From an uncultured virus (IMG/VR IMGVR_UViG_3300025096_002805) (Duplodnaviria > Heunggongvirae > Uroviricota > Caudoviricetes): DNA of 64,000 bases. Below the pieces are notes generated by a model. It worked only from the letters and a program-made list of their open reading frames with translations, ran no database searches and was not told the DNA's origin. Below, one piece after another: positions 4,876-28,863 of the stretch. Location of the stretch: IMG/VR virus record IMGVR_UViG_3300025096_002805. One strand, 5' to 3'. Made by a program: the position numbers and the translations under genes. Within the stretch, counting starts at the first letter, position 1. Each line of letters begins with the position of its first letter.

Positions 4876-5373
4876 CTAAAATTCTACGTACCATGTGCTA
4901 TCCTTCTGTTCTTTCGTTAAATTCATGAATTTACCGTACATTGGTTCAAAAAATCTTGGTTGATTGCTTCCGTCAAAGAAAACGTTTATTGAATGAGCCG
5001 ACCTTGACGAGTTTTTGTAAAAAATAATTCCCGCTAGCACCGAGTCAGCGTTTGTCTCGTTCTTTTTACCTTTAGCGCGTTCTGAGAAGGTGTAGGGATT
5101 GGCTTCGGCATGTAAAAGCTTCAAATAAGTCTTAAAAGAGATTGACAAGTCCTCGCAATCAAAGTTTGGCTTCCAATCTGAGTTATTTATCCCTTTTCCG
5201 AAGTCAAAAATGGACAACCATGCCTTAAATCCCTTATAGGCTTCTCTTTCTACCCACTTTAAGTCCAGATAAGCGTAGTCTTTATCTGTAGTTGGGTCGT
5301 TTTTGTTATTTGGGAATTGGCGTGCTACTAAATCTTTAAGCAATTTATTATTGATTGTCCTTGCGTCATCCAT
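4876..5373 (-). CDS. Hypothetical protein, possible papain/transglutaminase-like fold
   Basis: FDCED...HSINV...FFEP suggests a Cys-His-acid triad. Confidence 0.4.
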   Translation of the reverse strand: MDDARTINNKLLKDLVARQFPNNKNDPTTDKDYAYLDLKWVEREAYKGFKAWLSIFDFGKGINNSDWKPNFDCEDLSISFKTYLKLLHAEANPYTFSERAKGKKNETNADSVLAGIIFYKNSSRSAHSINVFFDGSNQPRFFEPMYGKFMNLTKEQKDSTWYVEF

Positions 5374-5374
5374 T

Positions 5375-5563
5375 TTAATACATAATTATATCAGAGTCTT
5401 CGTCTTCCTTGGAGTATTCGGAGCTTTTTGCTTTTTTCCATTTAGATTGGCAAACCGCGTATCTTTGTTTAGAATCAGCAAACTCTTTAACCATTACGCC
5501 GTCTTCCATGCATCTAGTCAGATACTTCTTCTTCTTGTCTCCTTTGGGGGTTGGTATGGGCAT
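5375..5563 (-). CDS. Small hypothetical phage protein
   Basis: 62-aa ORF in an operon context. Confidence 0.6.
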   Translation of the reverse strand: MPIPTPKGDKKKKYLTRCMEDGVMVKEFADSKQRYAVCQSKWKKAKSSEYSKEDEDSDIIMY

Positions 5564-5580
5564 TATTTGTCCTTTCGTTT

Positions 5581-5739
5581 TTAGTCTTCTTCCTCACATT
5601 CTCCATGGCACGTATCTTCAAAACAGCTTGGGTTTGTGCAGTGCATAGCTCGCACCACCCGACCTTTTCTTGTTATAACCTTTTTCAAGTCTTTATCTAA
5701 AGCTTCTTCAAGTAGTTTGGGGTCTTCGTGAGGTATCAT
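5581..5739 (-). CDS. Small Cys/His-rich protein (52 aa, not in ORF track)
   Basis: Hand-translated MIPHEDPK...HCTNPSCFEDTCHGECEEED. Confidence 0.55.
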   Translation of the reverse strand: MIPHEDPKLLEEALDKDLKKVITRKGRVVRAMHCTNPSCFEDTCHGECEEED

Positions 5740-5956
5740 ATTAATGTTTACACACTGTATATATCACAAACGCTTTTTTTTAACAATCGGCCGCGGATTT
5801 TTTTCGATTCGTATATTGGAAACACCAGAGAGCTTCGGGGAGAATGAAAAATAGGCCACCCCCGCTCTCCTGCGCTTGTCAAGGCAAAAGTTTTTTCATA
5901 AATACCCCACTTTGTTGTTGACATATGTCCTAACCTGTGCTATCATTTTACCAGTT

Positions 5957-6157
5957 ATGAGGGATAAGATGAAGAACCAATACATCGATTGGCTCAACGC
6001 GCGCGACGCCCGCAGGGTTGTTGCTCCCGTTGAGGGACACGAGGGTTATCGCGTGGTCAGCGCGATGACGGTGCGCGACCTCCAGCAGGATGACTTCGCC
6101 TCACCGGTGGAGGAGGACTGCGGGTGGTTCGGTTACGAAGGTCTTTGCGAAGACTGA
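5957..6157 (+). CDS. Early small hypothetical protein
   Basis: ATG just after promoter 5918. Confidence 0.7.
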   Translation: MRDKMKNQYIDWLNARDARRVVAPVEGHEGYRVVSAMTVRDLQQDDFASPVEEDCGWFGYEGLCED

Positions 6158-6162
6158 CGCCG

Positions 6163-6236
6163 TAACTCACTGAGCTCCAACAACTTAGAGCTCACCACCT
6201 CCCCCCCGCCGCAAGTCATTGGTAATCAACGACTTA
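6163..6236. repeat. Paired-palindrome element 1 (core C-rich on +)
   Basis: taactcactg-agctc-caacaactta, 24 nt, caagtcattg-gtaat-caacgactta. Confidence 0.9.
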
Positions 6237-6309
6237 CGCATCGAAAAAAAAGTGAAAAAAAGTGAAAATAAAGCTTGCAATTTTCTGAGATTGTGCTATA
6301 CTATCTTCA

Positions 6310-6507
6310 GTGAGTGAGAGAAAGAACAACGAAATAAATAAGATGAATAAGAACAACGAAATAGTGAACCCTATCGACAATGGCCAAGTGATTACCAGCG
6401 AGGTGTTGGTGTCCTGCTGCGGATGCAACGAAGAGCTTCGCATCACCCGCGAAGAGGCTGACGAATGGACTGATACCGATTGGTTCATGTGCCACGAGTG
6501 CGAATAA
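6310..6507 (+). CDS. Early small Zn-ribbon protein
   Basis: CCGC...CHEC; GTG 7 nt after the -10 box. Confidence 0.7.
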   Translation: MSERKNNEINKMNKNNEIVNPIDNGQVITSEVLVSCCGCNEELRITREEADEWTDTDWFMCHECE

Positions 6508-6547
6508 AAGCTTGACTTTTACTGAATAATCTGATACCATATAGCAA

Positions 6548-6763
6548 GTGAGTACGAAAATGACAGCATACGAGATGACAAGCAAGATGATAAGGAAGCC
6601 GAAGCCTGATGCACTCAAGCGCCTTGAGGCAGCACAGGCACAAGCGCGTAAGCAGAAGCGCATGATTAAGGAAGCACTCGAAACAATCCGCTTGAATAAG
6701 CCATACAAGCGCAGTGAGGATGCACCGACCTTGAAAGAATGGAATGACAGTTGGATAGGATAA
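6548..6763 (+). CDS. Early small basic protein
   Basis: Has its own promoter at 6512. Confidence 0.7.
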   Translation: MSTKMTAYEMTSKMIRKPKPDALKRLEAAQAQARKQKRMIKEALETIRLNKPYKRSEDAPTLKEWNDSWIG

Positions 6764-6767
6764 TCAA

Positions 6768-7265
6768 ATGAAATACGGAAATCAAAACTATACAGTAGAG
6801 AAGATACTCATCGTGCTTGCTGTACTGTGGGGCATGGCTACCATATGCAAGGTAGCAGGGCAAGAGCATACCCATCGCACGCACACACTCACACGAGAGC
6901 ATAAGGTAGTAGCCATCACCATACTGGCAGAGGCAAGGGGTGAGGGCAACGCTGGTATGTATGCTGTGGCTGCTGTTATAGCACAGCGTTCCTTTGAGCG
7001 TAAGCGTACACCAGAGCAGGTATGTCTAAAGGCTTACCAGTTTAGCTGCTGGAATGGTAAGAAGGTGAAAGACCTTGAGCATCTACTCACGCTGCCACAG
7101 GGCAAGTACGCCATACTGTTAGCCAAGACAGTCAAGCACTTGAGCCGTAGCTATGTGGGCTATGCCAACCACTACCATGCCACATGGATGAAGAAGAAGC
7201 CCTACTGGGCCAAGGGCAAGAAGCCTGTCAAGGTGATAGGTCAGCACGCTTTCTATAAACTCTAA
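6768..7265 (+). CDS. Cell wall hydrolase, SleB/Hydrolase_2 family
   Basis: AEARGEG, YQFSCWN, HYHA, IGQHAFY and an N-terminal TM segment. Confidence 0.9.
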   Translation: MKYGNQNYTVEKILIVLAVLWGMATICKVAGQEHTHRTHTLTREHKVVAITILAEARGEGNAGMYAVAAVIAQRSFERKRTPEQVCLKAYQFSCWNGKKVKDLEHLLTLPQGKYAILLAKTVKHLSRSYVGYANHYHATWMKKKPYWAKGKKPVKVIGQHAFYKL

Positions 7266-7276
7266 TTCACATGCTC

Positions 7277-7351
7277 TAAGTAACTAACCGCCAACAACTT
7301 AGGGCTGCGCCCCCAGCCCCCGGCCGTAAGTCCTTAGTAATCAATAACTTA
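7277..7351. repeat. Paired-palindrome element 2 (C-rich on +)
   Basis: taagtaacta-accgc-caacaactta, 25 nt, taagtcctta-gtaat-caataactta. Confidence 0.9.
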
Positions 7352-7429
7352 CAACACGAAAAAAAAAGTGAAAAAAAGTGAAAATAATCCTTGACTTTAG
7401 GGGTAATCTATGGCATACTATATCCAGTT

Positions 7430-7588
7430 ATGAGAGATAAGAACATGAAAGAAAAAACGGTTAAGGTCAAGGGGCCTTGGGTTGATGGAGTGCAGACGGT
7501 CAAAGAGATCAGTCAAGAAGAGTGGACAAGTTACACGCCGCTAAACAGGCGCGTAAAAGGTGAATGGTTCAGAGTGGTAAAATGGTAA
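7430..7588 (+). CDS. Early small hypothetical protein
   Basis: ATG after promoter 7391. Confidence 0.65.
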   Translation: MRDKNMKEKTVKVKGPWVDGVQTVKEISQEEWTSYTPLNRRVKGEWFRVVKW

Positions 7589-7635
7589 AAAATAAAGCTT
7601 GACTTTTACTGAAAATCTGCTATAATAACTTTGTT

Positions 7636-7845
7636 ATGAGTGATAGAGAAAAACTACTAAAGCGATGGAGAAACCTTCCAGTAAACGAACGCGTGACTTG
7701 GGAGACTTTCAAGAGGCAACAAGCACCAAAAGTCATCCGTCAGTCAAGACCAGATGACGAGAAAATGCAACGAATGTTCGAGGCTGCTGAAGCAGTCGGA
7801 AGCGTACGGAACGATGAAATTTGGGACTTTGGCCCAGAATGCTAA
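7636..7845 (+). CDS. Early small hypothetical protein
   Basis: ATG after promoter 7599. Confidence 0.7.
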   Translation: MSDREKLLKRWRNLPVNERVTWETFKRQQAPKVIRQSRPDDEKMQRMFEAAEAVGSVRNDEIWDFGPEC

Positions 7846-7851
7846 AAAATC

Positions 7852-8016
7852 ATGAAGGAAGATAAATACGAAAAAACACTTGACCGCTTCTCCGGCAAGG
7901 TGCTAACCTGCGACATATGCGAAGCAGAAGACAGCGAAGAAAACGAAGTCAGGGAATGGGGTAACCCATACGACTGGGGCGTAATCTGCGAAGAGTGCGA
8001 CTGTCACGAAACATGA
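7852..8016 (+). CDS. Small Zn-ribbon protein (54 aa, not in ORF track)
   Basis: Hand-translated; CDIC...CEEC. Confidence 0.6.
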   Translation: MKEDKYEKTLDRFSGKVLTCDICEAEDSEENEVREWGNPYDWGVICEECDCHET

Positions 8017-8018
8017 TA

Positions 8019-8327
8019 ATGAAAAAAATTATCCTTTTTTTATTCTTATTCTCTGTTAGCTTAAATGCTGCTAGTTTAAAGATTGTGCCTGTTCAGCAAA
8101 AGACTTTGCCAAATGGTAATGCTTACGGATTGGAAAGTGGAGTATACTTTGAATTAACAGACTTGCATCCTTTTATAATGTATAAATTGCAATACTCTGA
8201 AGATTTAAAGACATGGAAAGACTTAGTTTGGCTTGGCACTCACAAGATAGCAATGACTTCGCCTTACTTCACTTGGAATCAGTTGCCGCCTAACCAATGT
8301 TTTTTTAGAATAGAAGAAGCTTGGTAA
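8019..8327 (+). CDS. Secreted hypothetical protein
   Basis: Signal peptide MKKIILFLFLFSVSLNA; tail YKLQYSEDLKTW...FFRI. Confidence 0.7.
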   Translation: MKKIILFLFLFSVSLNAASLKIVPVQQKTLPNGNAYGLESGVYFELTDLHPFIMYKLQYSEDLKTWKDLVWLGTHKIAMTSPYFTWNQLPPNQCFFRIEEAW

Positions 8328-8400
8328 ACCACTGAGCGCCAACAACTTACGCGCCGGGGGGGTTGGGCGCGAAGCTAAGTCCTTGATAGTCAATGACTTA
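8325..8400. repeat. Paired-palindrome element 3 (core inverted, G-rich on +)
   Basis: taaaccactg-agcgc-caacaactta, 26 nt, taagtccttg-atagt-caatgactta. Confidence 0.9.
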
Positions 8401-8464
8401 CGATACGAAAAAAAAGTGCAAAAAGGTGTTGACATCTTCGGCAAAGTGTGCTATCATATTCCCA

Positions 8465-8650
8465 GTGAGTGAGAGAAAAACAATGACTGAAATCTACGGA
8501 GCCAATTACGCCAAGTTTGTACGCCGCACCTTAAAGGTGACGAAGCATCCCTTTATCCCACGCGAAGAGCCAGTCAGCGAGGCGTTTGTACCACGAAAAA
8601 AAAGTGAAAAAAAAGTTGAAAAAGGGCTTGACTTTGTCCCTAAAGTGTGA
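8465..8650 (+). CDS. Early small hypothetical protein
   Basis: GTG after promoter 8429; its 3' end runs through the next promoter. Confidence 0.5.
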   Translation: MSERKTMTEIYGANYAKFVRRTLKVTKHPFIPREEPVSEAFVPRKKSEKKVEKGLDFVPKV

Positions 8651-8663
8651 TACCATTTTACCA

Positions 8664-8978
8664 GTGAGTGAGAGAAATAACATGAACCATTACTACATCA
8701 AGGATGAGGACGGATTGTTCCGTATGTTCGATGTGAGCCATGACGGGCTCGAGGACGCGATTGAGGTCGCCAACGAAATCGGCACAGATGTCATGCGTGA
8801 GCGTGACGGCGTGACCGAGCAGGTCTGGTCGTTTGAGGAGTCTGGCGAAACCGAGCCAGACGAGCCTTCCGACGGTTTCCATAGTGACGCGATGGCCGAT
8901 GCCGATGTGCTGGCCAGCGCGGGTTACGGAACTGACGAGGATTACGGTTGCTTCGACGACTACAACGACGGCTTTTGA
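8664..8978 (+). CDS. Early acidic protein
   Basis: Very Asp/Glu-rich, ends ASAGYGTDEDYG. Confidence 0.75.
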   Translation: MSERNNMNHYYIKDEDGLFRMFDVSHDGLEDAIEVANEIGTDVMRERDGVTEQVWSFEESGETEPDEPSDGFHSDAMADADVLASAGYGTDEDYGCFDDYNDGF

Positions 8979-8988
8979 GCCGTCGTGT

Positions 8989-9020
8989 GAGTGCTACGCT
9001 TTAAACGCAGCGTGACGCTC
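8989..9020 (+). repeat. Duplicated hairpin, copy 1
   Basis: 30 nt (8991-9020) identical to 12331-12360. Confidence 0.85.
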
Positions 9021-9030
9021 TTTTAAATTT

Positions 9031-9201
9031 ATGTCTCAAAACCATAATGAGACCATCCTCAAAAATCTTGAGGATTGGAAAAAGCAAAGGGCTGCAGCGG
9101 TCGTCGCAAAGGCGGAGCGGCAGCGGGTCAAAAAGGCAAGGCAGGAGCGCCAAACCTTCAATCGCGGATTCGGCTCAATTAGAGAGCTGTTAAGTCGTTG
9201 A
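9031..9201 (+). CDS. Small basic protein (56 aa, not in ORF track)
   Basis: Hand-translated MSQNHNETILK...RELLSR; the stop lies inside element 4. Confidence 0.6.
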   Translation: MSQNHNETILKNLEDWKKQRAAAVVAKAERQRVKKARQERQTFNRGFGSIRELLSR

Positions 9202-9264
9202 CTATCAACGACTTAGGTCCGGGGCCTCCCCCCGCGCCGCAAGTCGTTGGTAATCAGTAACTTA
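9191..9264. repeat. Paired-palindrome element 4 (C-rich on +)
   Basis: taagtcgttg-actat-caacgactta (perfect), 24 nt, caagtcgttg-gtaat-cagtaactta. Confidence 0.92.
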
Positions 9265-9338
9265 CGTATCGAAAAAAAAAGTAAAAAAAGTGAAAATAAG
9301 GCTTGACTTTTCCCGTTTTTTCTGATAGACTATATCAA

Positions 9339-9512
9339 GTGAGTGAGAGAAAGACAATGAACCTATTCAAGAAAAACCAAATGACGCTTAAGGAAATCGA
9401 ACGCTTTATGGATGCCAAGCGCAAGCGTGAAGCAGTACGGGAAAACCTTAAGAGAATCGGGAAAGCGGCTGAAATCGCAGTAGTGAGACAGCGTATGCCA
9501 AATATAGTTTAA
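9339..9512 (+). CDS. Early small basic protein
   Basis: After promoter 9303. Confidence 0.65.
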   Translation: MSERKTMNLFKKNQMTLKEIERFMDAKRKREAVRENLKRIGKAAEIAVVRQRMPNIV

Positions 9513-9556
9513 AATAAAGCTTGACTTTTAAGCTAAAATCTGATACGATATAACAA

Positions 9557-9850
9557 GTGAGTGAAAGAAAGAAAGAGATGAAAGAGAAAGAATACATAGA
9601 CTTCCTAAATGTCACCTTTAAGGTGAAACGAAATCCCAACTACAAGGGCAACCATTACCTTGCCACATGCAATTCAATCATGGGCAACACTTTCCCGCTT
9701 GGAACAACCAAGCAGGAGATGACTGACCAATTTCTTGAGCAGCAAGTCAACAACACGACTAAATACAAGGACATTATCCAAGTGGTTGAGATAGCCAAAT
9801 GTTTTGAGGATAGATCGCCCAAGGGAAGATTCCACAAAGATAACTACTAA
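9557..9850 (+). CDS. Early hypothetical protein
   Basis: After promoter 9521. Confidence 0.7.
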   Translation: MSERKKEMKEKEYIDFLNVTFKVKRNPNYKGNHYLATCNSIMGNTFPLGTTKQEMTDQFLEQQVNNTTKYKDIIQVVEIAKCFEDRSPKGRFHKDNY

Positions 9851-9892
9851 AAAGGCTTGACTTTCTCCTGAAAATCTGCTATACTAATTGAA

Positions 9893-10090
9893 GTGAGTGA
9901 GAAAACAAATACTAAAAACATTATGATAGAAAAAATAAAATGGTTGGTTAGTGACCTCGGGTTGAACGAATTCAATGCGTGGTTGTGGATAATAGGCGGC
10001 GCAGCATTAACGGCTGCGGTTCTAGTGCTGCTGTCAGGCGGCTTCGATGAGGTGTTCCGATACTGGAGAGTGTTCTTCTTAAATCTCTAA
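9893..10090 (+). CDS. Small membrane protein
   Basis: One TM segment; after promoter 9857. Confidence 0.65.
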   Translation: MSEKTNTKNIMIEKIKWLVSDLGLNEFNAWLWIIGGAALTAAVLVLLSGGFDEVFRYWRVFFLNL

Positions 10091-10434
10091 TGAAAGAAGA
10101 AGCACCCAAATTCAGTTCGTCGCCACTCTGGCCGGGATTTTCAATGACATTTAAGAACGGTTGGGAAATATCGGTTCAGTTTGGTAACGGACACTACTGC
10201 TCCAACAAAATGAAGGACAGTTCGTCTCGACAGAGTGAGACGGCGGAGGTCGCTATCTTCGCTCCAGACAAAGATGGTTTCCCCAGAGAGTGGTGGTCAT
10301 ACGACGAAACGCTTGACGATGTAGTCGAGCAGCCAGAAGAGAGTTATGTAAATGGTTGGTTGACAACCGATCAAGTTGCGAGTATAATTAATATAATAGC
10401 TAATAAAAATGAGAATAAATCCAATAGCAACTAA
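10090..10434 (+). CDS. Conserved phage hypothetical protein
   Basis: F.NGW.ISVQFG.GHYCSN...AEVAI. Confidence 0.7.
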   Translation: MKEEAPKFSSSPLWPGFSMTFKNGWEISVQFGNGHYCSNKMKDSSSRQSETAEVAIFAPDKDGFPREWWSYDETLDDVVEQPEESYVNGWLTTDQVASIINIIANKNENKSNSN

Positions 10435-10675
10435 CCAAACGGAAGTGCACTTCAACGAAAGACTCGTTGACGCAAGCAAGCGCGCTGTGTTCTTCTTTTC
10501 TTACGGTACGCCTGTCGCGGCCAAGGTTGGCACGACCTACTACAAGACAGAAGAGACATTCAGCAAGACAACTTCGCGTCATGTTAATCAATGGCTTGAA
10601 GACGTCAAATACGAAGTCAAGCCACAGAGCTGGTTTGCGAAGGCAACTTTAACAACTTTTCAGCCATGTAACTAA
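10409..10675 (+). CDS. Conserved phage hypothetical protein
   Basis: FSYGTPVAA...FSKTTSRHVNQW. Confidence 0.75.
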   Translation: MRINPIATNQTEVHFNERLVDASKRAVFFFSYGTPVAAKVGTTYYKTEETFSKTTSRHVNQWLEDVKYEVKPQSWFAKATLTTFQPCN

Positions 10676-10742
10676 CTGACCACCAACAACTTACGGGGCG
10701 GGGGGTTGTGCGCGGTGTAAGTCATTGATAGCCAAAGACTTA
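10669..10742. repeat. Paired-palindrome element 5 (G-rich on +)
   Basis: taactaactg-accac-caacaactta, 24 nt, taagtcattg-atagc-caaagactta. Confidence 0.9.
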
Positions 10743-10819
10743 CAGAACGAAAAGAAAAGAAAAAAAAATGAAAAAAAGGGTTGACAACTCCGGTGTTCTG
10801 TGTTATGCTATTCCCAGTT

Positions 10820-11053
10820 ATGAGAGATATGATTAGTTGTGAAGAGGTTTTCGAGGCCGATCCGCAGGCGCGGGCGGAGTTTGATGCGGTGTGCGACGAG
10901 TGGCTGAACGAGGCCATCGACGCGCAGGACGCCGAGGAGGATCTCGTCGAGTGCGAGGGCTGCGGCGAGCAGTGGTACGCGCATCAGGCGGGTGCGAACG
11001 GCCGCATCGAGTGGTGCCGGAAGTGCTACAAAAACGATCCTTACTACGTGTAA
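10820..11053 (+). CDS. Early acidic Zn-ribbon protein
   Basis: CEGC...CRKC; after promoter 10781. Confidence 0.7.
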   Translation: MRDMISCEEVFEADPQARAEFDAVCDEWLNEAIDAQDAEEDLVECEGCGEQWYAHQAGANGRIEWCRKCYKNDPYYV

Positions 11054-11124
11054 GGGTCTGATTGCCAACGACTTAGGACTTCACCCCCACCCCCCGACGT
11101 AAGTCATTGATACTCAGTGACTTG
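11051..11124. repeat. Paired-palindrome element 6 (C-rich on +)
   Basis: taagggtctg-attgc-caacgactta, 24 nt, taagtcattg-atact-cagtgacttg. Confidence 0.88.
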
Positions 11125-11229
11125 TGAATAGCTCTCTTATTTGAGTCCATATTTGCCTCGAAAAAGCTTTCGTTTTTCTTATATTAAGTCTTGACTTATT
11201 TCGCTTTTTGTGCTATACTCTTTTCAGTT

Positions 11230-11451
11230 ATGAGAGATAGAAAAAAGACGTTTACAGTATATTGGAAAGTGGACGACACCATCAACTTCAAAGCCTTCCC
11301 TATGGTGAAGGGTGAGCCTGACCATAGAGCGTTCAATGACGCAATTGACTTCGCTGGTGTCATAAGGAAAACAACTGTATTAGATGTTCGCATCGAATGC
11401 CGTAAACGTAACGACCGTGATGGCTGGGACATTGAACAAGTATGGCCTTGA
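11230..11451 (+). CDS. Early hypothetical protein
   Basis: After promoter 11191. Confidence 0.7.
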   Translation: MRDRKKTFTVYWKVDDTINFKAFPMVKGEPDHRAFNDAIDFAGVIRKTTVLDVRIECRKRNDRDGWDIEQVWP

Positions 11452-11484
11452 CTTTCAATCCAGTAAGTGTTATACTATTAAGAG

Positions 11485-11691
11485 ATGAGGAAATGGGTAC
11501 TAACTAGAATCGCACACTCAACTATCATTGTTGAATCTGAAACTGATCCCACCGATGACAAGTGGGACCTTGACACGAAGTATGGCAAGCAGTTTGATGA
11601 AGAGTATTACAATGACGGTCTTACCACATGGGAATGTGACACCGTAGAGAATGTGTATGGCGAAGGATACATGAAAAATCTTACCACATGA
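11485..11691 (+). CDS. Early hypothetical protein
   Basis: After promoter 11448. Confidence 0.7.
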   Translation: MRKWVLTRIAHSTIIVESETDPTDDKWDLDTKYGKQFDEEYYNDGLTTWECDTVENVYGEGYMKNLTT

Positions 11692-12041
11692 GAGTACAAG
11701 TTTATTACAACCTACACAAGAAGCGCCTCTCGGTTCGAAACAGAGGTAAAGTAATCAGACACGCCGACATTGTCCTTCTGGAAAATGTGAAGTTCCACGT
11801 TCAACCAGCAGGGCAAGCCAAGGTACGGAAGAACAAACGCAAAAATGTTCACGCTTACGTTGCTGGTGACTTGGCAAGCAAGCAAGGCTTTGGGAATGGT
11901 ACTGTCGAGGAGTTTGATCTTGTCAAGTACAATCCGTATAAGTATGACTTTTTTGTTGACGAAGAAGGAAATGAAATGCGAGACGTATACGAAAAGGCTT
12001 ACATTAAAAACAAAGAGATTTTTGTCAAGAAAAATGCTTGA
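11688..12041 (+). CDS. Conserved phage hypothetical protein
   Basis: VYYNLHK...RKNVHAYV.G...YNPYK. Confidence 0.8.
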   Translation: MRVQVYYNLHKKRLSVRNRGKVIRHADIVLLENVKFHVQPAGQAKVRKNKRKNVHAYVAGDLASKQGFGNGTVEEFDLVKYNPYKYDFFVDEEGNEMRDVYEKAYIKNKEIFVKKNA

Positions 12042-12070
12042 CATTAGCCGCAGTCTGTGGCATAATTAGA

Positions 12071-12310
12071 GTGTTGAAAGAGAAAAAAGAAAACAAAATG
12101 AAGAAGTTCCTAGTAAACTACATACCGGCTGTCCACGAAGGACAGGAGAACAAAGAAGACAAATCCTATTCCTACAGAGTAGAAATGGATGAACAATTCG
12201 CTAATCGTAGCGAGAAAGACGAGTCCGCTGGAATGGCAGCGAAAGACTCGGAGTCTGGCCTATGGAAGAGATTCCGTTGGGACAGAATCCAAAGTGCGGT
12301 GGCCATCTAG
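12071..12310 (+). CDS. Early hypothetical protein (start 12071 or 12098)
   Basis: After promoter 12038; ends WKRFRWDRI. Confidence 0.7.
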   Translation: MLKEKKENKMKKFLVNYIPAVHEGQENKEDKSYSYRVEMDEQFANRSEKDESAGMAAKDSESGLWKRFRWDRIQSAVAI

Positions 12311-12324
12311 CCACCAAACAAACC

Positions 12325-12524
12325 TTCTGGGTGCTACGCTTTAAACGCAGCGTGACGCTCGGGACAATTTTCGACCCGCGCCTCCTTAGAGGTTCGCGCT
12401 CAACAGCGCTACCTTTCCAGAACGCAATGAGTCTGGACGGCAACGCGTGAAGCCGTGGCGCGGTAACGAGAACGCACTCTCTCATAACACGACGCTAGTA
12501 GCCCCTTGCGAAAGCGAGGGGCTA
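12325..12524 (+). ncRNA. Candidate multi-hairpin non-coding RNA (includes hairpin copy 2)
   Basis: Several hand-folded stems with ACGC in their loops; ends in hairpin tagccccttgc-gaaa-gcgaggggcta. Confidence 0.45.
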
Positions 12525-12596
12525 TGTCGTTAACCACCAATGACTTGTGGCCGCGGCCTCCCCCCGCGCCGTAAGTCGTTGATAATCAATGAATTA
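12523..12596. repeat. Paired-palindrome element 7 (C-rich on +), at the convergence point
   Basis: tatgtcgtta-accac-caatgacttg, 24 nt, taagtcgttg-ataat-caatgaatta. Confidence 0.88.
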
Positions 12597-12599
12597 AGG

Positions 12600-12674
12600 T
12601 GGACGCGGGAGTCGGAATCGAACCGACGAGTAAGAGATTTGCAATCTCCCGCCTTACCACTTGGCTACCCCGCG
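12600..12674 (-). tRNA. tRNA-Cys(GCA)
   Basis: Cloverleaf with anticodon loop TTGCAAA, GGTTCGATTCC, U discriminator and CCA. Confidence 0.95.
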
Positions 12675-12688
12675 CACTGTAAATTAAT

Positions 12689-12773
12689 TCCGGGCACTGT
12701 GGCTGTTTCATGAGGCACCTGAACCTCGAGCCTGTATCAGGATCTCCCTGATCACCATGGCCACGTGCCCGGA
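12689..12773 (-). ncRNA. Three-way-junction RNA motif, copy A
   Basis: P1-CATGGTG-P2(GAGAT loop)-ACAGG-P3-ATGAAACA-P1; covaries with copy B. Confidence 0.7.
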
Positions 12774-12791
12774 GTATGGTTCAGAAAATGG

Positions 12792-12908
12792 TTATTTCTT
12801 CGGGTCTCGTTTCCTATCGTATGACCCTTTACCCTTCTTTGTTTTGTGCACGCGCTGCCCCGTGTTCCAATCGACCTGACGCCTAATTTTCTTTTTGGGC
12901 TCCTTCAT
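12792..12908 (-). CDS. arfA: ArfA-like ribosome rescue peptide (38 aa, not in ORF track)
   Basis: MKEPKKKIRRQVDWNTGQRVHKTKKGKGSYDRKRDPKK carries the ArfA signature QRV..KKGKGSYxRK. Confidence 0.7.
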   Translation of the reverse strand: MKEPKKKIRRQVDWNTGQRVHKTKKGKGSYDRKRDPKK

Positions 12909-12913
12909 GGTCT

Positions 12914-13369
12914 TCAGGCCTTCACGGCATCCCAGTCGCTCAAGTCCTCCGCCGCAATCGTCAACTCCTCGTGGATATTGAGTTCCGGCGTTCTCATCTT
13001 GTGCGTGTACAGTTCTTGCGTGTTCTGGAGTGAGGCAAGGAACCTGCTGGCCTCGTCCTTTGCGAGAACATCAGCTCCTGTCTTTTGTCCCTTGAGGTTA
13101 GCTGCGCCTACATCTTGGATGACCCGCGAGCGGCATATGTTGAGGACGGCTCTGTTGAACCGCGTCTCGTCTGTCCAGAACACCGCTAGTTTGTCGGTGC
13201 GCCAGTCAAGCTCGCCGTTGGTGGCCATCCAGTTCCAGAATGCCCAAAAGCGTTGGGTTATCTCCTGCTGGTTCTCGCCCTCCATGCCGATTATCAGGGA
13301 ATCTTCGTCGATTGCCTGCCGATAGTAGTTGATTTTTTCGTTAAACATAATGTTGCAAGCCTCTCTCAC
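12914..13369 (-). CDS. Early hypothetical protein
   Basis: After promoter 13381-13409. Confidence 0.75.
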   Translation of the reverse strand: MREACNIMFNEKINYYRQAIDEDSLIIGMEGENQQEITQRFWAFWNWMATNGELDWRTDKLAVFWTDETRFNRAVLNICRSRVIQDVGAANLKGQKTGADVLAKDEASRFLASLQNTQELYTHKMRTPELNIHEELTIAAEDLSDWDAVKA

Positions 13370-13533
13370 TTGCTGGGGAAAGTATAGCATAATTAACCCC
13401 ACTTGTCAAGCTCTTTTTCTACTCCCACCAGTCGTCCCCGGCGGAATACTTCGACCACCAGTAAACGAAAAACACGACAAGGATAAGAAAACAAATAGCC
13501 ATTCCTTAAAGATACAGCAAACTTGACTAATTG

Positions 13534-14166
13534 TCAATGTTTTTTGTAGTCAATGTTCTGGACTGACTCATCCCAACAGGCCCGACAGTCCGCGCACTCG
13601 TTGCCTTGGGTAGACGCTGGGCAAGAGAACCCTTCCCGCATAACGCCGCTTGTCGTCAGACCTAGGCTCTTTGCTAACTTGGTTGGTGGTTTGCCGTCCA
13701 TCATGTAAGCAGACAAACGAATGACAAGATTGTCGGGCTTACGGCCTAATGCTATCCACTCACGAACAAAACGATATTCCCTAGTCGGCAACCAAAACTT
13801 AATGTGAGGCAACCGCCTTGCAACTTCCGCAATCTTTTCGAGATGCCAAACACCTTGAACATCACCCGAATCATGCCAGCGAAAAAAGCCAGTCTTTTCC
13901 CTTTTGCCAATCATGAAAACCATCATGTCCACCCAATCAATTTGCTCTAATGCCTTGAGCCGCTTTTTCATCGCGGCCTTAACATTTGGGAAAACATAAC
14001 GCCCTTTTCGTGCGTAACAAAAAGAACAAATCGAATCAACAACCTGTGCCAACTTGGAGCCGGTAATACAATCCTCTGCCGGTGTGCTGTAACCAAACCC
14101 CGGCATCTTCGACGGCTTGGATAAGGAGCCGACCTTTCCTTCTGCGATTTTGACAGTAAGCTTCAT
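13534..14166 (-). CDS. GP88-family phage protein (Cys-rich)
   Basis: SKPSKMPG, CSFCYARKG, FRWHDSGD, CADCRACW. Confidence 0.8.
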   Translation of the reverse strand: MKLTVKIAEGKVGSLSKPSKMPGFGYSTPAEDCITGSKLAQVVDSICSFCYARKGRYVFPNVKAAMKKRLKALEQIDWVDMMVFMIGKREKTGFFRWHDSGDVQGVWHLEKIAEVARRLPHIKFWLPTREYRFVREWIALGRKPDNLVIRLSAYMMDGKPPTKLAKSLGLTTSGVMREGFSCPASTQGNECADCRACWDESVQNIDYKKH

Positions 14167-14201
14167 AACTGCGAAAAGTATAACACAAAAGAGGCCAAGT
14201 G

Positions 14202-14447
14202 TCAAGCAAAAATTAAATCCCAGCCTTCCGGGCTAATGCCCGTGTTGGCAAACTCTCTGTCCCCAGCGTCTAACGACTTCAAACACATGATAGGTTTCCC
14301 TTGGCTCAAATCCCAAAGTTCGTGACTGGGAATTGTTACGCTGTAAGGTTTACCTGTTTTGACGCAGGGGCCAGTGAAGGTGTAGGAGTGTTCTGGCTCG
14401 TAAGCCTCCGTGTAGGTGCAAGCACTTGTTTGTATGTATCGTCCCAT
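14202..14447 (-). CDS. Hypothetical protein
   Basis: DREF..TGISPEGW; has its own promoter. Confidence 0.7.
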   Translation of the reverse strand: MGRYIQTSACTYTEAYEPEHSYTFTGPCVKTGKPYSVTIPSHELWDLSQGKPIMCLKSLDAGDREFANTGISPEGWDLIFA

Positions 14448-14513
14448 AACTTCTTATAGCATACCACAATCTGAACCTCATGTCAAGCCTTTTCCTGTCA
14501 TGTTTTACCCCTG

Positions 14514-14588
14514 TAAGTCATTGAGTATCAATGACTTAGGGCCTGCGGCCTCCCCCCGCGCCGTAAGTTGTTGGGGTGTAATGAGTTA
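14514..14588. repeat. Paired-palindrome element 8 (C-rich on +)
   Basis: taagtcattg-agtat-caatgactta (perfect), 25 nt, taagttgttg-gggtg-taatgagtta. Confidence 0.9.
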
Positions 14589-14610
14589 CGCCCCCGCTTT
14601 CGCGGGGGCG
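14589..14610. terminator. GC hairpin abutting element 8
   Basis: cgcccccgc-tttc-gcgggggcg. Confidence 0.55.
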
Positions 14611-14700
14611 TTTACCTCAGACCGAATGAAAAAAACAACAAAAGGGGAGGCGGGTTGCCTTCGCGCCAGCGGGTCTTATTTGCCCGCCTCCCCAGTGACA

Positions 14701-15588
14701 TCAAGAGGCAACAAGTATATCGTCAGACTTGACCGAGGGCTTGCGGCTCAACTTTGAGTAGTAGCTCTTGTCTTTGGCGGCTCTCGTCAACTTCCTGAGA
14801 ATGCTCTCGTTGACCTTCTCTGCATACTCAAAACGCTCGTTCTGTACGGCGTTCGGGTTCTTCCCGCTGGACAAATGCTGAGTCGCAGCATTGTAAAGCG
14901 TGTAAAGATTCCGAGCTTCATCCTCTTTGTAAGTAGGATTCACCCAAATCTTGGTGATGTCCTGCCTCAAGGAATTACTCAGCACCTTGGAGTCTTGAAG
15001 ATTCTTCAAAATGTAATCTCCAATCGTGTTATCAATTTTGACCTCGCTCAAACGAGTGAAGTCAGAACCGACTGTCTCAAAGGCATCTATCGCACGGTCG
15101 ATAGCGTTTGACACGCCGCTCAAGTCCAGCTTGCTGGAATGCTTCTGATTGAAGCTGAAAGCAGAGCGTAATCCTTTCATGCCGTTCGTGCATATCTCGC
15201 GTAACATACCCAAGTCCAGACCTGCAAAACAGGAACGGTCATAAGAGTTACGCACCGTGACACGCATATCGAGCTTGTCGCCGACCTGTGGAATGAAGAT
15301 AGACTTGTCGGTGAAGTCGTATGTTCCGTACATCGTCGCGCCATCACGCGCCACGCGGATTTCCTTCGCGTATGTAATACCCTTGTCGGTGAGGACTTCC
15401 TCAACTGAATCAACGAGGGTCGAGTTAAGCAACAAGCCATACTTGTCACTTGTTACACCAAGCACCTTGCCTGTGTCTGTCCTGCGAGTCCCCCAGTATC
15501 CCGCTTTGTTACCGTCAGAAGTTTGAAGTTCTTCCATAACAACAGGGAACCGATACTCGCCGCTTGTAGGTCTGCTTGTTCTAGCCAT
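14701..15588 (-). CDS. DUF932 / TIGR03299-like phage-plasmid protein
   Basis: RTDTGKVLGV.SD.Y, RNSYD.S, REICTNG, LYNAAT. Confidence 0.8.
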   Translation of the reverse strand: MARTSRPTSGEYRFPVVMEELQTSDGNKAGYWGTRRTDTGKVLGVTSDKYGLLLNSTLVDSVEEVLTDKGITYAKEIRVARDGATMYGTYDFTDKSIFIPQVGDKLDMRVTVRNSYDRSCFAGLDLGMLREICTNGMKGLRSAFSFNQKHSSKLDLSGVSNAIDRAIDAFETVGSDFTRLSEVKIDNTIGDYILKNLQDSKVLSNSLRQDITKIWVNPTYKEDEARNLYTLYNAATQHLSSGKNPNAVQNERFEYAEKVNESILRKLTRAAKDKSYYSKLSRKPSVKSDDILVAS

Positions 15589-15634
15589 GTTCTTATCTTA
15601 ACACTTACTGGATTAAAAGTCAAGGCAAGAAACC

Positions 15635-16255
15635 TCAGGCCATAATGGCCTGAGATTTCCGTATGAACGCCTTCGCCTTCTGCTTTGCAGCATTAGTTTT
15701 CGCGCGAAGGGCCAAAGCTGGGCTTTTCGCCTCAATCCACTCCTCGAAAAGATTCACGCAATCGTCAAATGTGCGCTGGTCAATGTCAAGGGTACGATGC
15801 TCCGCTTGAGTGTTCAAGTTAAGCATGAGGTTTTTCCTCCCGTACTTCTTGGCGATGTACCGTTGAGCGTGCCACAAGGCGTTAATCACCTGTTGCTCGT
15901 TCTCGCCGGTATCCGTCTTGGCACTAGCCTTGAACACCACGATATCGCGCCAACCTAAACGGCTGAAGCTACCGCTATGATAACCGTCATTGGTTACCTT
16001 GTTCAAATACTTCATGGTGCTGTATCCAAGCTGATCGTTTGGATTCATTAAGCGACTATGAAGGTTGCGACTAGTCCTGCCTCCATAAGTGAAGAACCGA
16101 CCATTTTTGATCGTCGCCCACGCATAGAGATGAGCCTCAGAAGGAGAGGCTTGGAGGTCGTTACAGCCACGAACGGGTGTCCCGTAAGTTCTGGCATACT
16201 CATAACCCGTGTTGTTATACACACGGCCAACGCTGGATAATGAATTCGTATTCAT
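15635..16255 (-). CDS. Hypothetical protein, possible GIY-YIG-like N-terminus
   Basis: LYAW...TYGGRTSRNLHSRL. Confidence 0.4.
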   Translation of the reverse strand: MNTNSLSSVGRVYNNTGYEYARTYGTPVRGCNDLQASPSEAHLYAWATIKNGRFFTYGGRTSRNLHSRLMNPNDQLGYSTMKYLNKVTNDGYHSGSFSRLGWRDIVVFKASAKTDTGENEQQVINALWHAQRYIAKKYGRKNLMLNLNTQAEHRTLDIDQRTFDDCVNLFEEWIEAKSPALALRAKTNAAKQKAKAFIRKSQAIMA

Positions 16256-16371
16256 TTTGTAGTTTCGTATCTGGTTTTGATCGAGTTAGTTCCCCGATCA
16301 CTTTTAATAGTATAGCATCACCTGAATGGAAAGTCAACACTTTTTTTAAAGTTTTTTTAAATTTTAAAATA

Positions 16372-16509
16372 GCGAGCGGGGCAGTCCCTATCACATTTAA
16401 GGCCGCGGCTGGGAATCCGCTAGGCCACCCTTGGGAGCGACTTGTAGGCGACACGCGAAGTTCGCCACCATCTCTAGCCATGATTTTTTCAGTCGTTCCC
16501 GCGCTCACT
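16372..16509 (-). ncRNA. Candidate structured small RNA with its own promoter
   Basis: Paired 5'/3' ends and internal stems; an overlapping GTG ORF (16215-16508) is the alternative reading. Confidence 0.45.
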
Positions 16510-16581
16510 TCTATAATCTTACCATATACTGGCCCACGTGTCAACTAAAAAATGATTCGAAACCAACGCAACGGTCCATCC

Positions 16582-16704
16582 TAAGTCGTTGAGTATCAAT
16601 GACTTACGCGCGGGGGGGAGGTCGCGGCCGTAAGTCGTTGGGTATCAGTTACTTAGGGAATAGAAAGCGAAAAAAGTCATAAGTTATTGATATTAAATGA
16701 TTTA
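16582..16704. repeat. Paired-palindrome element 9 (G-rich on +) plus a third palindrome
   Basis: Palindromes at 16582-16606, 16631-16655 and 16680-16704, each separated by 24 nt. Confidence 0.9.
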
Positions 16705-16822
16705 CATCTCATTTCATTGCCTATTATTTGGAGTATTTTAAAAAAGTGGGCAAATTATTTGTTCTTATTATTATTAACTCATTTGATTATTTGTATATTT
16801 GTAATATTTAAGAAAAGTGGGC

Positions 16823-16850
16823 AAAAAAAAGACCCCGCCGAAGCGGGGTC
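16823..16850 (-). terminator. Intrinsic terminator
   Basis: gaccccgc-ttcg-gcggggtc followed by T8 on the minus strand. Confidence 0.85.
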
Positions 16851-16869
16851 ACTATGAGGGAAGGAGAGG

Positions 16870-16945
16870 GGAGACTCCGGTGTTTCACTAGGGTAACCTA
16901 CAAACCCTGTCCACGCATCTCGCGCAGCACCATGCCGAAGGCTCC
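16870..16945 (-). ncRNA. Three-way-junction RNA motif, copy B
   Basis: Same junction sequences as copy A with different, still-pairing stems. Confidence 0.7.
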
Positions 16946-16953
16946 TTACGCCG

Positions 16954-17166
16954 CTAGGTGCGGCGTTTGGTTTTCGCGCCGACCGAGGTCGTGCGACGGG
17001 CCGCTTTTGGCCCATTCATGACCGCTTTGAACGCGGCCTTGTTAACAGGCTCATATCGATGAGCGTGTTGATTGATGTTCACCAACTGCGTAGCAGTCAG
17101 TATCTTCAAGCTGCCGCCGGACTGGCGTTCAACTTCCAACTGATATGTATGATTGCGCATACCCAT
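16954..17166 (-). CDS. Small hypothetical protein
   Basis: Has its own promoter, 17215-17243. Confidence 0.65.
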   Translation of the reverse strand: MGMRNHTYQLEVERQSGGSLKILTATQLVNINQHAHRYEPVNKAAFKAVMNGPKAARRTTSVGAKTKRRT

Positions 17167-17239
17167 AATTTTTTCTTGTTTCGTTTGCGGGAACTGTTCC
17201 CTGACTACTTCTTAATTATACCAGTACCTGTGCTCAAAG

Positions 17240-18169
17240 TCAAGCAATTAGTTTCAAATAATCAAGTCCTTTTGCTGTTATGTTTCTTCCAGCAGTTGTT
17301 ATCTCCATCAAGGAATGCTTTTGCAAGTAGATTTCAAAATCTCTTTGTACTGCTTGCTTTGAAAGACCAGTTTTTGCAGACAAATTAGTAAGACTGCAAT
17401 CCTTGTGGTCTTTCAGAATGTTGAGCAACTGAATTTCCGTAATGTTCAAGCCAAGAGGGAAGATACTGAGAATCCCGCTCAATTCCTGCCAATCCTTCTG
17501 TTTGAATCCTGTAACCTTTTTCTGTTTGCAATAAGACTCAATCTTTTGAGCCATCTTTTGTGCTGCTCTCGCATTACCGCGCAAGACAGAGGCGATATCC
17601 TGTAATGTTTTTGAATCAATGTCAATGTCGAGGTTCAAATTAACAATCTGACCCATCTCATCCAAGGTGTACTCCTCCAAATCTACACGCTCAAGCCTGT
17701 CCATCAAGGCGTGAAATACGGATTGAGTCTCAGTTGTCGCAAACATGAATGACAGTCTGCGAAAGTCGAAGTCAACCGTATAGTCCTCGTATGAGAAGGT
17801 AGTAAGGTTATCTGGATTGGGATTCAGAATGGTCAACAATGCCATCGTCACATCCTTGGGAATCTCACTACATTCGTCGAACAAGATAGTAGCATCCCTG
17901 TCCTGCATGATTGGAATAACCAACTGATTAAAAAACTGCTTCACATTCTTAATCGTAGAACAGTTAATCTCAAAGTACCTCTTGGCATCGTCAATGCGCT
18001 TGAGCCTACGAGCAACTGCCTTGGCTAATGTCGTTTTGCCGCATCCTTTCGGTGCGACGAACATGAGATGAGGCATGACCTTGGTTTGTTTGAAACCATC
18101 GCAAAAGAAATTAAGAACTCGCTTTGCGTTGTCTTGACCAATGATGCTTGGGAAAAGAGTCGTATCCAT
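17240..18169 (-). CDS. ruvB: RuvB-like AAA+ ATPase
   Basis: IIGQ, PKGCGKTTLA, LFDE, ATTE, DRL, RGNAR and a C-terminal winged-helix region. Confidence 0.75.
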   Translation of the reverse strand: MDTTLFPSIIGQDNAKRVLNFFCDGFKQTKVMPHLMFVAPKGCGKTTLAKAVARRLKRIDDAKRYFEINCSTIKNVKQFFNQLVIPIMQDRDATILFDECSEIPKDVTMALLTILNPNPDNLTTFSYEDYTVDFDFRRLSFMFATTETQSVFHALMDRLERVDLEEYTLDEMGQIVNLNLDIDIDSKTLQDIASVLRGNARAAQKMAQKIESYCKQKKVTGFKQKDWQELSGILSIFPLGLNITEIQLLNILKDHKDCSLTNLSAKTGLSKQAVQRDFEIYLQKHSLMEITTAGRNITAKGLDYLKLIA

Positions 18170-18457: not shown

Positions 18458-18702
18458 CTCTTAATAATGCCACAATCTGATGCAAAAGTCAACATTAAAA
18501 TAAAAAAAAATGAATTAAAAAACTTATTTAAATTTTGTATTGATTTGACTATGTTTGATGATATTAGGTTTGATTGTAATTTTTTTAAAGTTTTTTTAAA
18601 AAATAATGATGTTTTAAGAATTTCCTTAAAAGTCATTGTTTTCGGGGCCGCTGCTAATATTTGGCATTAGTTCATTAGTATTTGGTATTAAACCATTCAC
18701 TA

Positions 18703-18895
18703 ATATTACGCCGAAAATCATTCACAAATAGAATAGCAAAATTTAATTAAATTTAATTAAAAATTATCTATGTAATTGTAGTAACGAGTTGGTAGATTTG
18801 CATAGTTATATATTTCGGGCAAAGTCATTCGCAAATAAGGCTTGACTTGTATTCAAGTTTGTGCATTATATTTCGCGCCGATTCATTCACAAATA
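18703..18895. repeat. Three 28-bp direct repeats in an AT-rich non-coding region
   Basis: ATATT(T/A)CG-N7-TCATTC(A/G)CAAATA at 18703, 18810 and 18868. Confidence 0.75.
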
Positions 18896-18970
18896 TGGTA
18901 GGTCGGGTGAGAGTCGAACTCACAACCAATAGCTTAAAAGGCTACTGCTCTACCATTGAGCTACCAACCT
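18896..18970 (-). tRNA. tRNA-Lys(UUU)
   Basis: Cloverleaf with loop CTTTTAA and CCA end. Confidence 0.95.
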
Positions 18971-28702: not shown

Positions 28703-28863
28703 TTAAAAGTTTTTTTAAAGCCTTGAGGTGAAAGACAACGAAAGAGTCTCCTATTGTCCTCTCTCCTTGGCCGCTACACAACCAATAATCGTTTAAGTTT
28801 TTATCATCTTTCTTCGCCGCAAGAATAATCTCGTCAATCAAATTATTTGCCGTTTCCATGTTA

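Follow-up and report, generated by a model that had tools for sequence, protein, structure and literature searches.

A stretch of 64,000 nucleotides from an uncultured marine phage (IMG/VR record IMGVR_UViG_3300025096_002805), referred to here as the window, carries an array of nine paired-palindrome units, each composed of two 25-bp palindromes flanking a GC core, within its early gene region. With about an even chance, these units serve as paired bending sites of the IHF/HU type (IHF, integration host factor) which, together with the core, form the upstream architecture of early promoters and also supply the homology on which early-gene cassettes are shuffled. Such a design probably shapes the early promoters and eases the swapping of gene cassettes.

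The palindrome pattern, TAAGTCRTTG-N5-CAAYGACTTA, was matched with at most three mismatches for counting and at most four for the partners within units. The window holds 15 matches, all within positions 6163-16704, compared to 0.02 expected from shuffled sequence; none of 100 shuffles reached 15. Nine paired units confined to this array had been named in a preliminary description, and both points hold: each of the nine consists of palindrome, GC core and palindrome, with the second palindrome having at most four mismatches and the partners starting 49-51 bp apart. The third palindrome reported for unit 9 is also present, 49 bp beyond the second, start to start. The two palindromes of a unit are unequally kept. 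The left one is degenerate in units 1, 2, 3, 5 and 6 (three to four mismatches, mainly in the left arm), and for these copies the name palindrome is generous. Relative to the promoters described below, the distal copy is degenerate in six of nine units, and the promoter-proximal copy is the better kept in seven of eight units of the window. Eleven of the 13 exact matches to the IHF consensus WATCAANNNNTTR in the whole window fall within the 719 bases of the units, and every unit holds at least one, as had been noted.

The cores share a run of at least five G or C (9/9), and a short GC dyad can be discerned by eye in about six of the nine. The 17-mer GGCCTCCCCCCGCGCCG is found exactly three times in the window (9223, 12555 and 14547), and the claim that units 4, 7 and 8, and only these, have an identical core is thus correct. 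Units 3, 5 and 9 have the C6-7 run inverted to G, which the preliminary description had missed; relative to the promoter, five cores are C-rich and three G-rich, and among 91 units of the wider family that could be oriented by a one-sided promoter the ratio is 43:34, with 14 ties. A core with a fixed C-rich face is at odds with these two orientations, and no result of this analysis shows the core being presented to a further protein. Contigs of three and two metagenome runs contain one-base length variants of the G7 runs at 8356 (unit 3) and 16612 (unit 9), respectively; these would shift the palindrome spacing by 1 bp, and homopolymer errors could also explain them.

The early region (5900-16704), which includes the whole array, lies in the GC-richer part of the window (0.43-0.50 at 6-18 kb, compared to 0.36-0.42 elsewhere) and contains 37 sigma70-type promoter-like sites where 13.2 would be expected. 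Eight of the nine units precede such a promoter, with scores of 9-11 out of 12 and a TG before the -10 element in all eight, which bears out the earlier statement that all units other than unit 7 lie ahead of a strong sigma70 promoter. The gap between palindrome and -35 element is 38, 39, 28, 38, 38 and 66 bp for the six plus-strand promoters, and 27 and 37 bp for the two on the minus strand. A-tracts spaced approximately 10-11 bp apart fill this gap in units 1-5 only, the A-tract that had been reported as frequent thus applying to these five; the gap of unit 3 is shorter by one A-tract module than those of units 1, 2, 4 and 5 (28 compared to 38 bp).

Rightward genes occupy 5.9-12.3 kb and leftward genes 16.5-12.9 kb. 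Six units serve the former. Unit 1 (6163-6236) has its distal palindrome at 6163 (three mismatches), a C7 core and its proximal palindrome at 6212 (one mismatch), and a 38-bp gap with phased A-tracts leads to the promoter TTGCAA-16-TATACT (6275-6302, plus strand, with TG before -10). In unit 2 (7277-7351), palindromes at 7277 (four mismatches) and 7327 (three) enclose a C5+C5 core, with TTGACT-17-CATACT (7391-7419, plus strand) following at 39 bp. Unit 3 (8325-8400) combines palindromes at 8325 (four) and 8376 (one) with an inverted G7 core and, at 28 bp, the promoter TTGACA-17-TATCAT (8429-8457, plus strand); the TAA of its distal palindrome is the stop codon of the open reading frame (ORF) at 7995-8327. 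Unit 4 (9191-9264) begins with a perfect palindrome at 9191, followed by the core with the shared 17-mer, a palindrome at 9240 (three mismatches), and TTGACT-17-TAGACT (9303-9331, plus strand) at 38 bp. The distal palindrome of unit 5 (10669-10742) starts at 10669 (four mismatches) and the proximal at 10718 (one), on either side of an inverted G6 core, and its promoter, TTGACA-17-TATGCT (10781-10809, plus strand), again lies at 38 bp. Unit 6 (11051-11124), with palindromes at 11051 (four) and 11100 (two) and a C5+C6 core, is separated by 66 bp without an A-tract from TTGACT-17-TATACT (11191-11219, plus strand); its distal TAA is likewise a stop codon, that of the ORF at 10781-11053.

Unit 7 (12523-12596; palindromes at 12523 and 12572) is situated where the two early blocks converge and lacks a promoter after it. 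A minus-strand tRNA-Cys gene (12600-12674) abuts it, and this unit-tRNA junction is also kept in one relative, G003 (74.8% over 123 nt). The two remaining units serve minus-strand promoters. Unit 8 (14514-14588) has a perfect proximal palindrome at 14514 and a second at 14564 (three mismatches), with TTGACA-17-TATGCT (14458-14486, minus strand) at 27 bp. Unit 9 (16582-16704) marks the right edge of the early region, with palindromes at 16582 (no mismatch), 16631 (two) and 16680 (three), a G7 run in the core between the first two and an AT-rich second spacer; its promoter, TTGACA-17-TAAGAT (16516-16544, minus strand), is 37 bp away. A canonical hairpin and T-run terminator (16821-16850, minus strand) lies upstream of unit 9 in the direction of transcription, and hence this unit sits between terminator and promoter.

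The arrays recur in related phages. The exact palindrome was found in 108 stretches of IMG/VR, and five relatives judged by CheckV to be 90-100% complete (138-170 kb) have 12-23 sites each. In four of these five the sites occupy a single region of 10-13 kb, G002 having two clusters; the array regions are GC-richer than their flanks, and those of G003 and G005 adjoin the clamp-loader gene, as in the window. A further relative, G001, overlaps only 30462-64000 of the window and is without palindromes. A DnaE-type polymerase is common to four of the five complete relatives (44-58% identity), and G006, with 23 sites, has no match to DnaE, PolA or PolB. Because of this, and because the Stenotrophomonas phage DLP6, which carries a paired form of the half-site, is T4-like, the arrays are seen to occur in different lineages. 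Among 238 family pairs counted after removal of duplicates, the spacing is 50 bp in 69, 42 in 39, 41 in 28, 58 in 19 and 52 in 18, followed by 48 (17), 49 (16), 51 (11), 53 (11) and a few others. The spacing is thus rigid inside a lineage and not across lineages (41-58 bp overall). Conservation in relatives, put forward as a check in the preliminary description, therefore extends to the arrays of five complete genomes, with fixed spacing only within a lineage, and the general two-bend geometry deduced from the near-fixed spacing does not survive, given that relatives use 41/42, 48-53 or 58 bp; a universal helical phasing of the two palindromes is ruled out by the same range. Across the family, the proximal palindrome is the better kept in 55 units compared to 27, with nine ties. 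Family gaps to the -35 element cluster at approximately 17, 29, 39 and 49 bp, with a periodicity peak at 10.5-11.5 bp (R 0.46-0.48, n=67) for which the Rayleigh p-values are inflated, the copies being related.

Whether the units act as DNA or RNA can be judged from how they vary. In a set of 477 non-redundant palindromes from the window and the IMG/VR loci, the mirrored pair 4/22 is G-G in 58 and C-C in 49 compared to C-G in 71, and the pair 7/19 is A-C in 48 compared to A-T in 31; with non-pairing combinations this frequent, changes at one position are poorly compensated at its mirror partner. Non-Watson-Crick combinations make up about a fifth of the mirrored cells, without a G-U bias in the sense direction, and in the 91 promoter-oriented units mismatches of the G-U and A-C types are balanced (63/72 in distal and 52/38 in proximal palindromes). 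The predicted RNA folds of the nine units have no common structure: the proximal palindrome forms a hairpin in seven of nine, and units 4 and 9 show pairing between their two palindromes. Five units have fold z-scores of -1.2 to -1.8, one of -2.2, and three of -3.0 or below (-5.5, -3.0 and -5.0 for units 4, 8 and 9). All 20 terminator-like sites scored in 5500-17500 fall outside the units, no unit scores as a hairpin with a T-run, and the Rfam search returned no family at the units, only the tRNA-Cys and a sub-threshold rsmX match. The lack of compensation and of G-U bias, the differing folds, the missing T-run and the two core orientations together favor recognition of the units as double-stranded DNA, and the direct repeats of DLP6 suggest that the half-site works without a palindrome.

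The alternative, that the units act in RNA as 3'-end hairpins serving as terminators, attenuators, RNase processing sites or stabilizers, is unlikely. It could account for the position of units 1-6, each of which begins within, or at most 11 nt past, the stop codon of the upstream gene with no other terminator between, for the proximal hairpins and the low z-scores of units 4, 8 and 9, and for the clean GACCCC-tetraloop-GGGGTC core of relatives with 58-bp spacing. Stem-loops of the promoter-early stem-loop (PeSL) cassettes of T4-type phages, moreover, are described as terminating transcription in reporter assays (PMC2839356; PMC4122927). Set against this, it is sequence and not pairing that is conserved, the distal palindrome is degenerate in most units, no U-run follows any unit, the core is found in both orientations, and the half-sites of DLP6 are non-palindromic. 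In addition, a separate terminator precedes unit 9 and, by eye, a terminator-like hairpin with a T-run also precedes unit 8.

The identity of the binder was approached through the consensus of the 477 palindromes and, as a control for bias from selection by pattern, through a blind set of 77 partner palindromes taken at the modal spacing. On the left side, the 477 palindromes have Y at position 1 (T460/C17), AA at 2-3 and TGA at 9-11; the center, position 13, is W (A200/T206), followed by CA at 16-17 and R at 18 (A419/G57), and the right end has TT at 23-24 and R at 25 (A454/G20). Positions 4-7 and 19-22 are variable. In both sets the specified positions of WATCARNNNNTTR are retained in each arm, most weakly at W and the first A; in the blind set, information reaches 1.5-1.7 bits at A5, T11, T12 and R13 and falls to 0.3-0.5 bits at N7 and N10. 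Matches to WATCARNNNNTTR therefore vary mainly at the N positions, with N8/N9 and W/A as exceptions, and the fit of the arms to the IHF consensus is good, though not exclusive. The IHF reading of the preliminary description is to this extent upheld, the weakly kept W and A excepted. The HU/IHF domain (PF00216) was not detected in any of five related records (G001-G005, of which four are 90-100% complete), with controls positive in 9 of 14; since the domain is missing there, a host protein would be the simpler candidate for the binder. A recombinase or IHF/HU-like gene traveling with the array, which had been suggested as something to look for, was likewise sought in the relatives and not found.

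The array also bounds genes that are being rearranged. Homologues of 11 of the 28 small early ORFs lie in the arrays of relatives in different orders and orientations: the DUF932 cassette is inverted with respect to its neighbor in G005, and three genes of one G005 block are spread over three cassettes in the window. Genes also move singly between cassettes. DNA homology from array to array is mainly limited to the units and the promoter-leader segments. Four metagenome runs compared with the window consist of contigs, from which starts, ends and true depth are not readable; they include joints between promoter repeats across whole cassettes, from 6297 to 7415 (two runs, sides of 43-54 nt) and from 7624 to 9587 (three runs). 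The proposed link of the units to early promoters and gene cassettes is real in this sense, with promoters at eight of nine units and homologues shuffled between relatives. Tyrosine (PF00589) and serine (PF00239) recombinase domains were found in none of the five complete relatives (controls positive in 14 of 14 and 12 of 14, respectively), and for this reason the shuffling resembles general recombination between copies of regulatory DNA, the explanation also put forward for PeSL cassettes. Palindromic flanks would in this case let a core or a cassette invert.

That the units are instead dedicated, attC-like recombination sites for an unrecognized recombinase that moves early-gene cassettes, a possibility raised in the preliminary description, is now disfavored and would seem very unlikely. 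Units do bound cassettes whose order and orientation differ between relatives, cores flip between otherwise similar units, and in G002 a 4.7-kb direct repeat (142979-147652 and 18608-23281; loci L258 and L259/L257), 99.6% identical, starts 12 bp past a palindrome unit and runs nearly to the contig end. Nevertheless, besides the missing recombinase domains in the relatives and in all 28 early ORFs, the better-supported population joints are in promoter and leader repeats rather than in units, single genes move between cassettes, and palindromic flanks would permit inversion by general recombination with no dedicated enzyme.

The anatomy, the pattern of conservation in the family, the position of the promoters, the missing RNA signature and the shuffling of genes between relatives are shown by the data; a mechanism may be proposed from them, in which the binder, the bending, any influence on transcription and the part played by the units in shuffling are inferred. 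In each 25-bp palindrome, two overlapping IHF-type sites (YAANNNNTTGATW and WATCARNNNNTTR) would mirror each other. The most likely binder is a bending protein of the host IHF/HU family, with a single dimer on each palindrome in one orientation or the other. Two such sites would then clamp the stiff G/C-run core and lie a defined distance ahead of the UP-like A-tracts that belong to the strong sigma70 early promoters, with the proximal site centered near -86 or -76. The bend may wrap the upstream DNA towards RNA polymerase and separate each early promoter from the preceding unit. Unit, promoter and leader together would constitute a repeat of approximately 160 bp, offering homology on which general recombination could shuffle, delete and invert early-gene cassettes.

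A number of observations weigh against paired bending sites of this kind. Unit 7 is without a promoter, and in the family a promoter scoring at least 9 of 12, within 130 bp and pointing away, accompanies only 99 of 238 pairs, 139 having none; the inflated statistics of the gap periodicity have already been mentioned. Joints at the unit edges (6159 to 8376 and 11128 to 16582) have sides of only 23-32 nt and may stem from the units of other phages; they were left out as evidence for shuffling. Units 1-6 start at or within 11 nt of stop codons without another terminator between, and may therefore also play a role in ending transcripts. Known IHF sites are asymmetric, with an A/T-rich element 5' of the core; here the sites are mirror pairs, and on its 5' side each arm has its mirror partner in place of an A-tract, so that the A/T-rich 5' element of an IHF site is not found. 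The footprint of IHF covers approximately 35 bp, and the 25-bp distance between the half-sites of DLP6 is hence too close for two IHF dimers. The IHF consensus does not predict the conservation of G at N8 (0.85 bits) and A at N9 (1.12 bits) together with a specified W and first A that carry only 0.34 and 0.21 bits among the blind partners. Finally, a host IHF/HU binder is putative, as is the presence of IHF in the host.

Some of these points would be explained if a different sequence-specific protein of phage or host, acting as an activator or shut-off repressor, reads TCAAYGASTTA half-sites in double-stranded DNA, the likeness to IHF being partly coincidence. This is a doubtful but serious alternative. 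The G and A conserved within the NNNN stretch, a mirror symmetry typical of homodimeric regulators and the 25-bp direct-repeat half-sites of DLP6, which suit a small protein, all speak for it. A candidate exists in the L5-gp82-like ORF (11688-12041, plus strand, PF25735); no other early ORF has homologues within the arrays of all five complete relatives. On the other hand, a DNA-binding Pfam domain is present in none of the 28 early ORFs, the gp82-like protein is absent from DLP6, and the motif occurs in phages that differ in their replication machinery, such that a shared phage binder would need to be transferred together with its sites. The gp82-like AlphaFold2 model (mean predicted local-distance difference test score, pLDDT, 79.4) is beta-rich, with no Foldseek match in the PDB at E <= 0.001, and an atlas search gave its own Pfam family only; these predicted-fold results support neither side with respect to a binding role.

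Returning to paired bending sites as the preferred reading, the arrays mark the first-expressed and fastest-changing genes of an uncultured marine phage clade. Docking of a host bending protein on the palindromes would mean that many phages rely on one common host factor for their early expression, and early regions and host-takeover genes could then be located in metagenomes by the palindrome, as a simple sequence flag; such modules would also explain the exchange of these genes between phages. A bolder extension, which is rather improbable, would make the unit a self-contained promoter boundary module without a fixed orientation that moves horizontally between unrelated phage lineages, with host IHF or an unknown universal bending protein as a shared dependency of many abundant marine phages. 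Owing to the palindromic flanks, ordinary recombination could in that case invert, excise and re-insert early-gene cassettes, in a recombinase-free analogue of the integron for anti-host and take-over genes.

The phage of the window is not T4-type. Its genes include rIIA/rIIB, clamp loader, ribonucleotide reductase (RNR), primase and a DnaB-type helicase, and a T4-like phage, first suggested by PHROG matches to rIIA/B and the clamp loader, was ruled out by its DnaE-type polymerase; PolB was found in none of six related records. The polymerase gene seems to be split (54372-58435, minus strand) into an N-terminal part at 57641-58435 and a main part at 54372-56969, with a gene for an exonuclease subunit (56966-57604) between the two. 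Relatives of its rIIB at E <= 1e-20 number 1838. Megablast of window positions 6000-17000 against phages gave no match, and blastn of one unit gave five matches only, weak and irrelevant. The early region is present in marine metagenome runs of 17 studies, and no RNA data are among the 24 listed runs that contain it. A Pfam family is assigned to only four of its 28 small ORFs (Hydrolase_2, L5-gp82-like, GP88 and DUF932), none of them a known DNA-binding or recombinase family, and its rightward and leftward genes meet at unit 7 and the tRNA-Cys gene.

Several smaller features accompany the early region. A leader, CAGTGAGTGAGAGAAA or CAGTTATGAGAGATA, lies between the -10 element and the start codon of at least eight early genes (e.g., 6309, 8464, 9338 and 9556) and is kept in relatives too. 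A 30-nt repeat, GTGCTACGCTTTAAACGCAGCGTGACGCTC, is found twice (8991-9020 and 12321-12350), each time just past a gene end, and 8995-9014, inside the first copy, scored as terminator-like. Outside the early region, the motif TTATTTGGCATTTT appears seven times (18658, 28843-30246 and 63670) and may be a later-class promoter or operator. In three runs the contig depth of the left flank (5001-5961) compared to that of 12735-16903 was 19.4/34.5, 17.5/31.4 and 4.4/8, and two runs have contigs that stop exactly at 5961; the half depth of the left flank could reflect a long terminal repeat, as with a T5-type pre-early region present twice per genome, or a strain mix equally, as it comes from contigs only and the right flank is not lower.

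Bacterial genomes offer no simple counterpart. Among 185,579 species genomes, the exact palindrome was present in 116 stretches, comprising 107 distinct sites. Only six of these are paired, all on contigs of metagenome-assembled genomes (MAGs). Of the 101 single sites, 21 have the phage-type TTGA...TCAA center and 36 are tips of longer dyads; their contexts include positions after tmRNA or tRNA genes, within an insertion sequence with a DDE transposase, and upstream of argS. Examples are the single exact copies in Rhodoferax/Albidiferax MAGs (L146 and L181), a member of the Verrucomicrobiae (L142) and Akkermansia (L205), placed directly behind tmRNA genes, ahead of the DDE transposase of a multi-copy element, and approximately 50 bp upstream of an argS promoter. 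A universal host site, which the count first suggested, is not borne out, the bacterial copies being judged a mixture of hairpins and sites, in part to be expected by chance for a palindromic pattern. They are judged to be neither a host repeat family nor evidence for a binder, and the preliminary description, for which a described host repeat family would have been fatal, is untouched by them.

Among the closest described systems are BIME/RIP of Escherichia coli and the Correia elements of Neisseria, intergenic mosaics of an IHF site and GC-rich dyads that, like the units, are often at gene ends and tied to recombination, Correia elements also to promoters (PMC3184786). As described there, GC-rich REP palindromes of BIME flank one central IHF site; the units are reversed, with IHF-type palindromes flanking a GC core, and they belong to phage early regions rather than bacterial chromosomes. 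The attC sites of integrons have a cognate tyrosine/serine recombinase, unlike the units, for which none was found in five complete relatives or 28 early ORFs. IHF-stimulated sigma70 promoters with an upstream site include lambda pL, Mu Pe and ilvPG. These share with the units an IHF-type site approximately 75-90 bp upstream of the start and an A/T-rich, UP-like region between; their sites are single, asymmetric and experimentally tested, whereas the units are mirror-symmetric, paired, repeated nine times and known from their sequence.

Motif searches of the literature led only to the DLP6 paper, and a keyword search to no paper describing such an element. The architecture had been thought unlike any described system; judged by these searches this is nearly right, but the half-site has been listed for DLP6 and the general kind has been published as PeSL. 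In the DLP6 paper, the half-site motif is listed under PHIRE "phage promoters in groups of two," and the authors read it as a promoter (PMC5349666). The genome of DLP6 has 21 forward and three reverse copies of TCAACGACTTA, which is not palindromic; 17 of the 24 copies are arranged as seven direct pairs at 25-26 bp and a triplet, and the other seven stand alone. Downstream of each pair come a GC hairpin and a TTTACT-N17-TATAAT promoter, the proximal copy lying approximately 21-23 bp upstream of the promoter. The half-site (AATCAACGACTTA, which fits WATCAANNNNTTR) is common to DLP6 and the units; in both it is usually paired, adjoins a GC hairpin and a sigma70-type promoter, and precedes gene clusters. 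They differ in that DLP6 has direct repeats 25-26 bp apart instead of mirror palindromes, and places its GC hairpin between the sites and the -35 element, whereas the GC core of the units lies between the two sites.

The closest parallel is found in the PeSL cassettes (Arbiol et al. 2010, PMC2839356; Comeau et al. 2014, PMC4122927). They resemble the units in a strong sigma70-like early promoter with AT-rich DNA upstream of it, in a GC element of G-run/C-run tracts, and in their clustering in a plastic region of small ORFans where gene content is shuffled between relatives, with deletions from repeat to repeat. The PeSL has one stem-loop, often a G-run followed by a C-run, and no IHF-type palindromes, whereas two 25-bp palindromes flank the GC element of the units, upstream of the A-tracts. 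The PeSL phages are T4-type; the phage of the window has a DnaE-type polymerase, with PolB found in none of its six related records. Terminator activity and mini-circles have been demonstrated for PeSL, the units being known here through sequence analysis. By analogy, the unit may work like a PeSL cassette with added IHF-type palindromes, though not as a strict member of that group, its phage not being T4-type.

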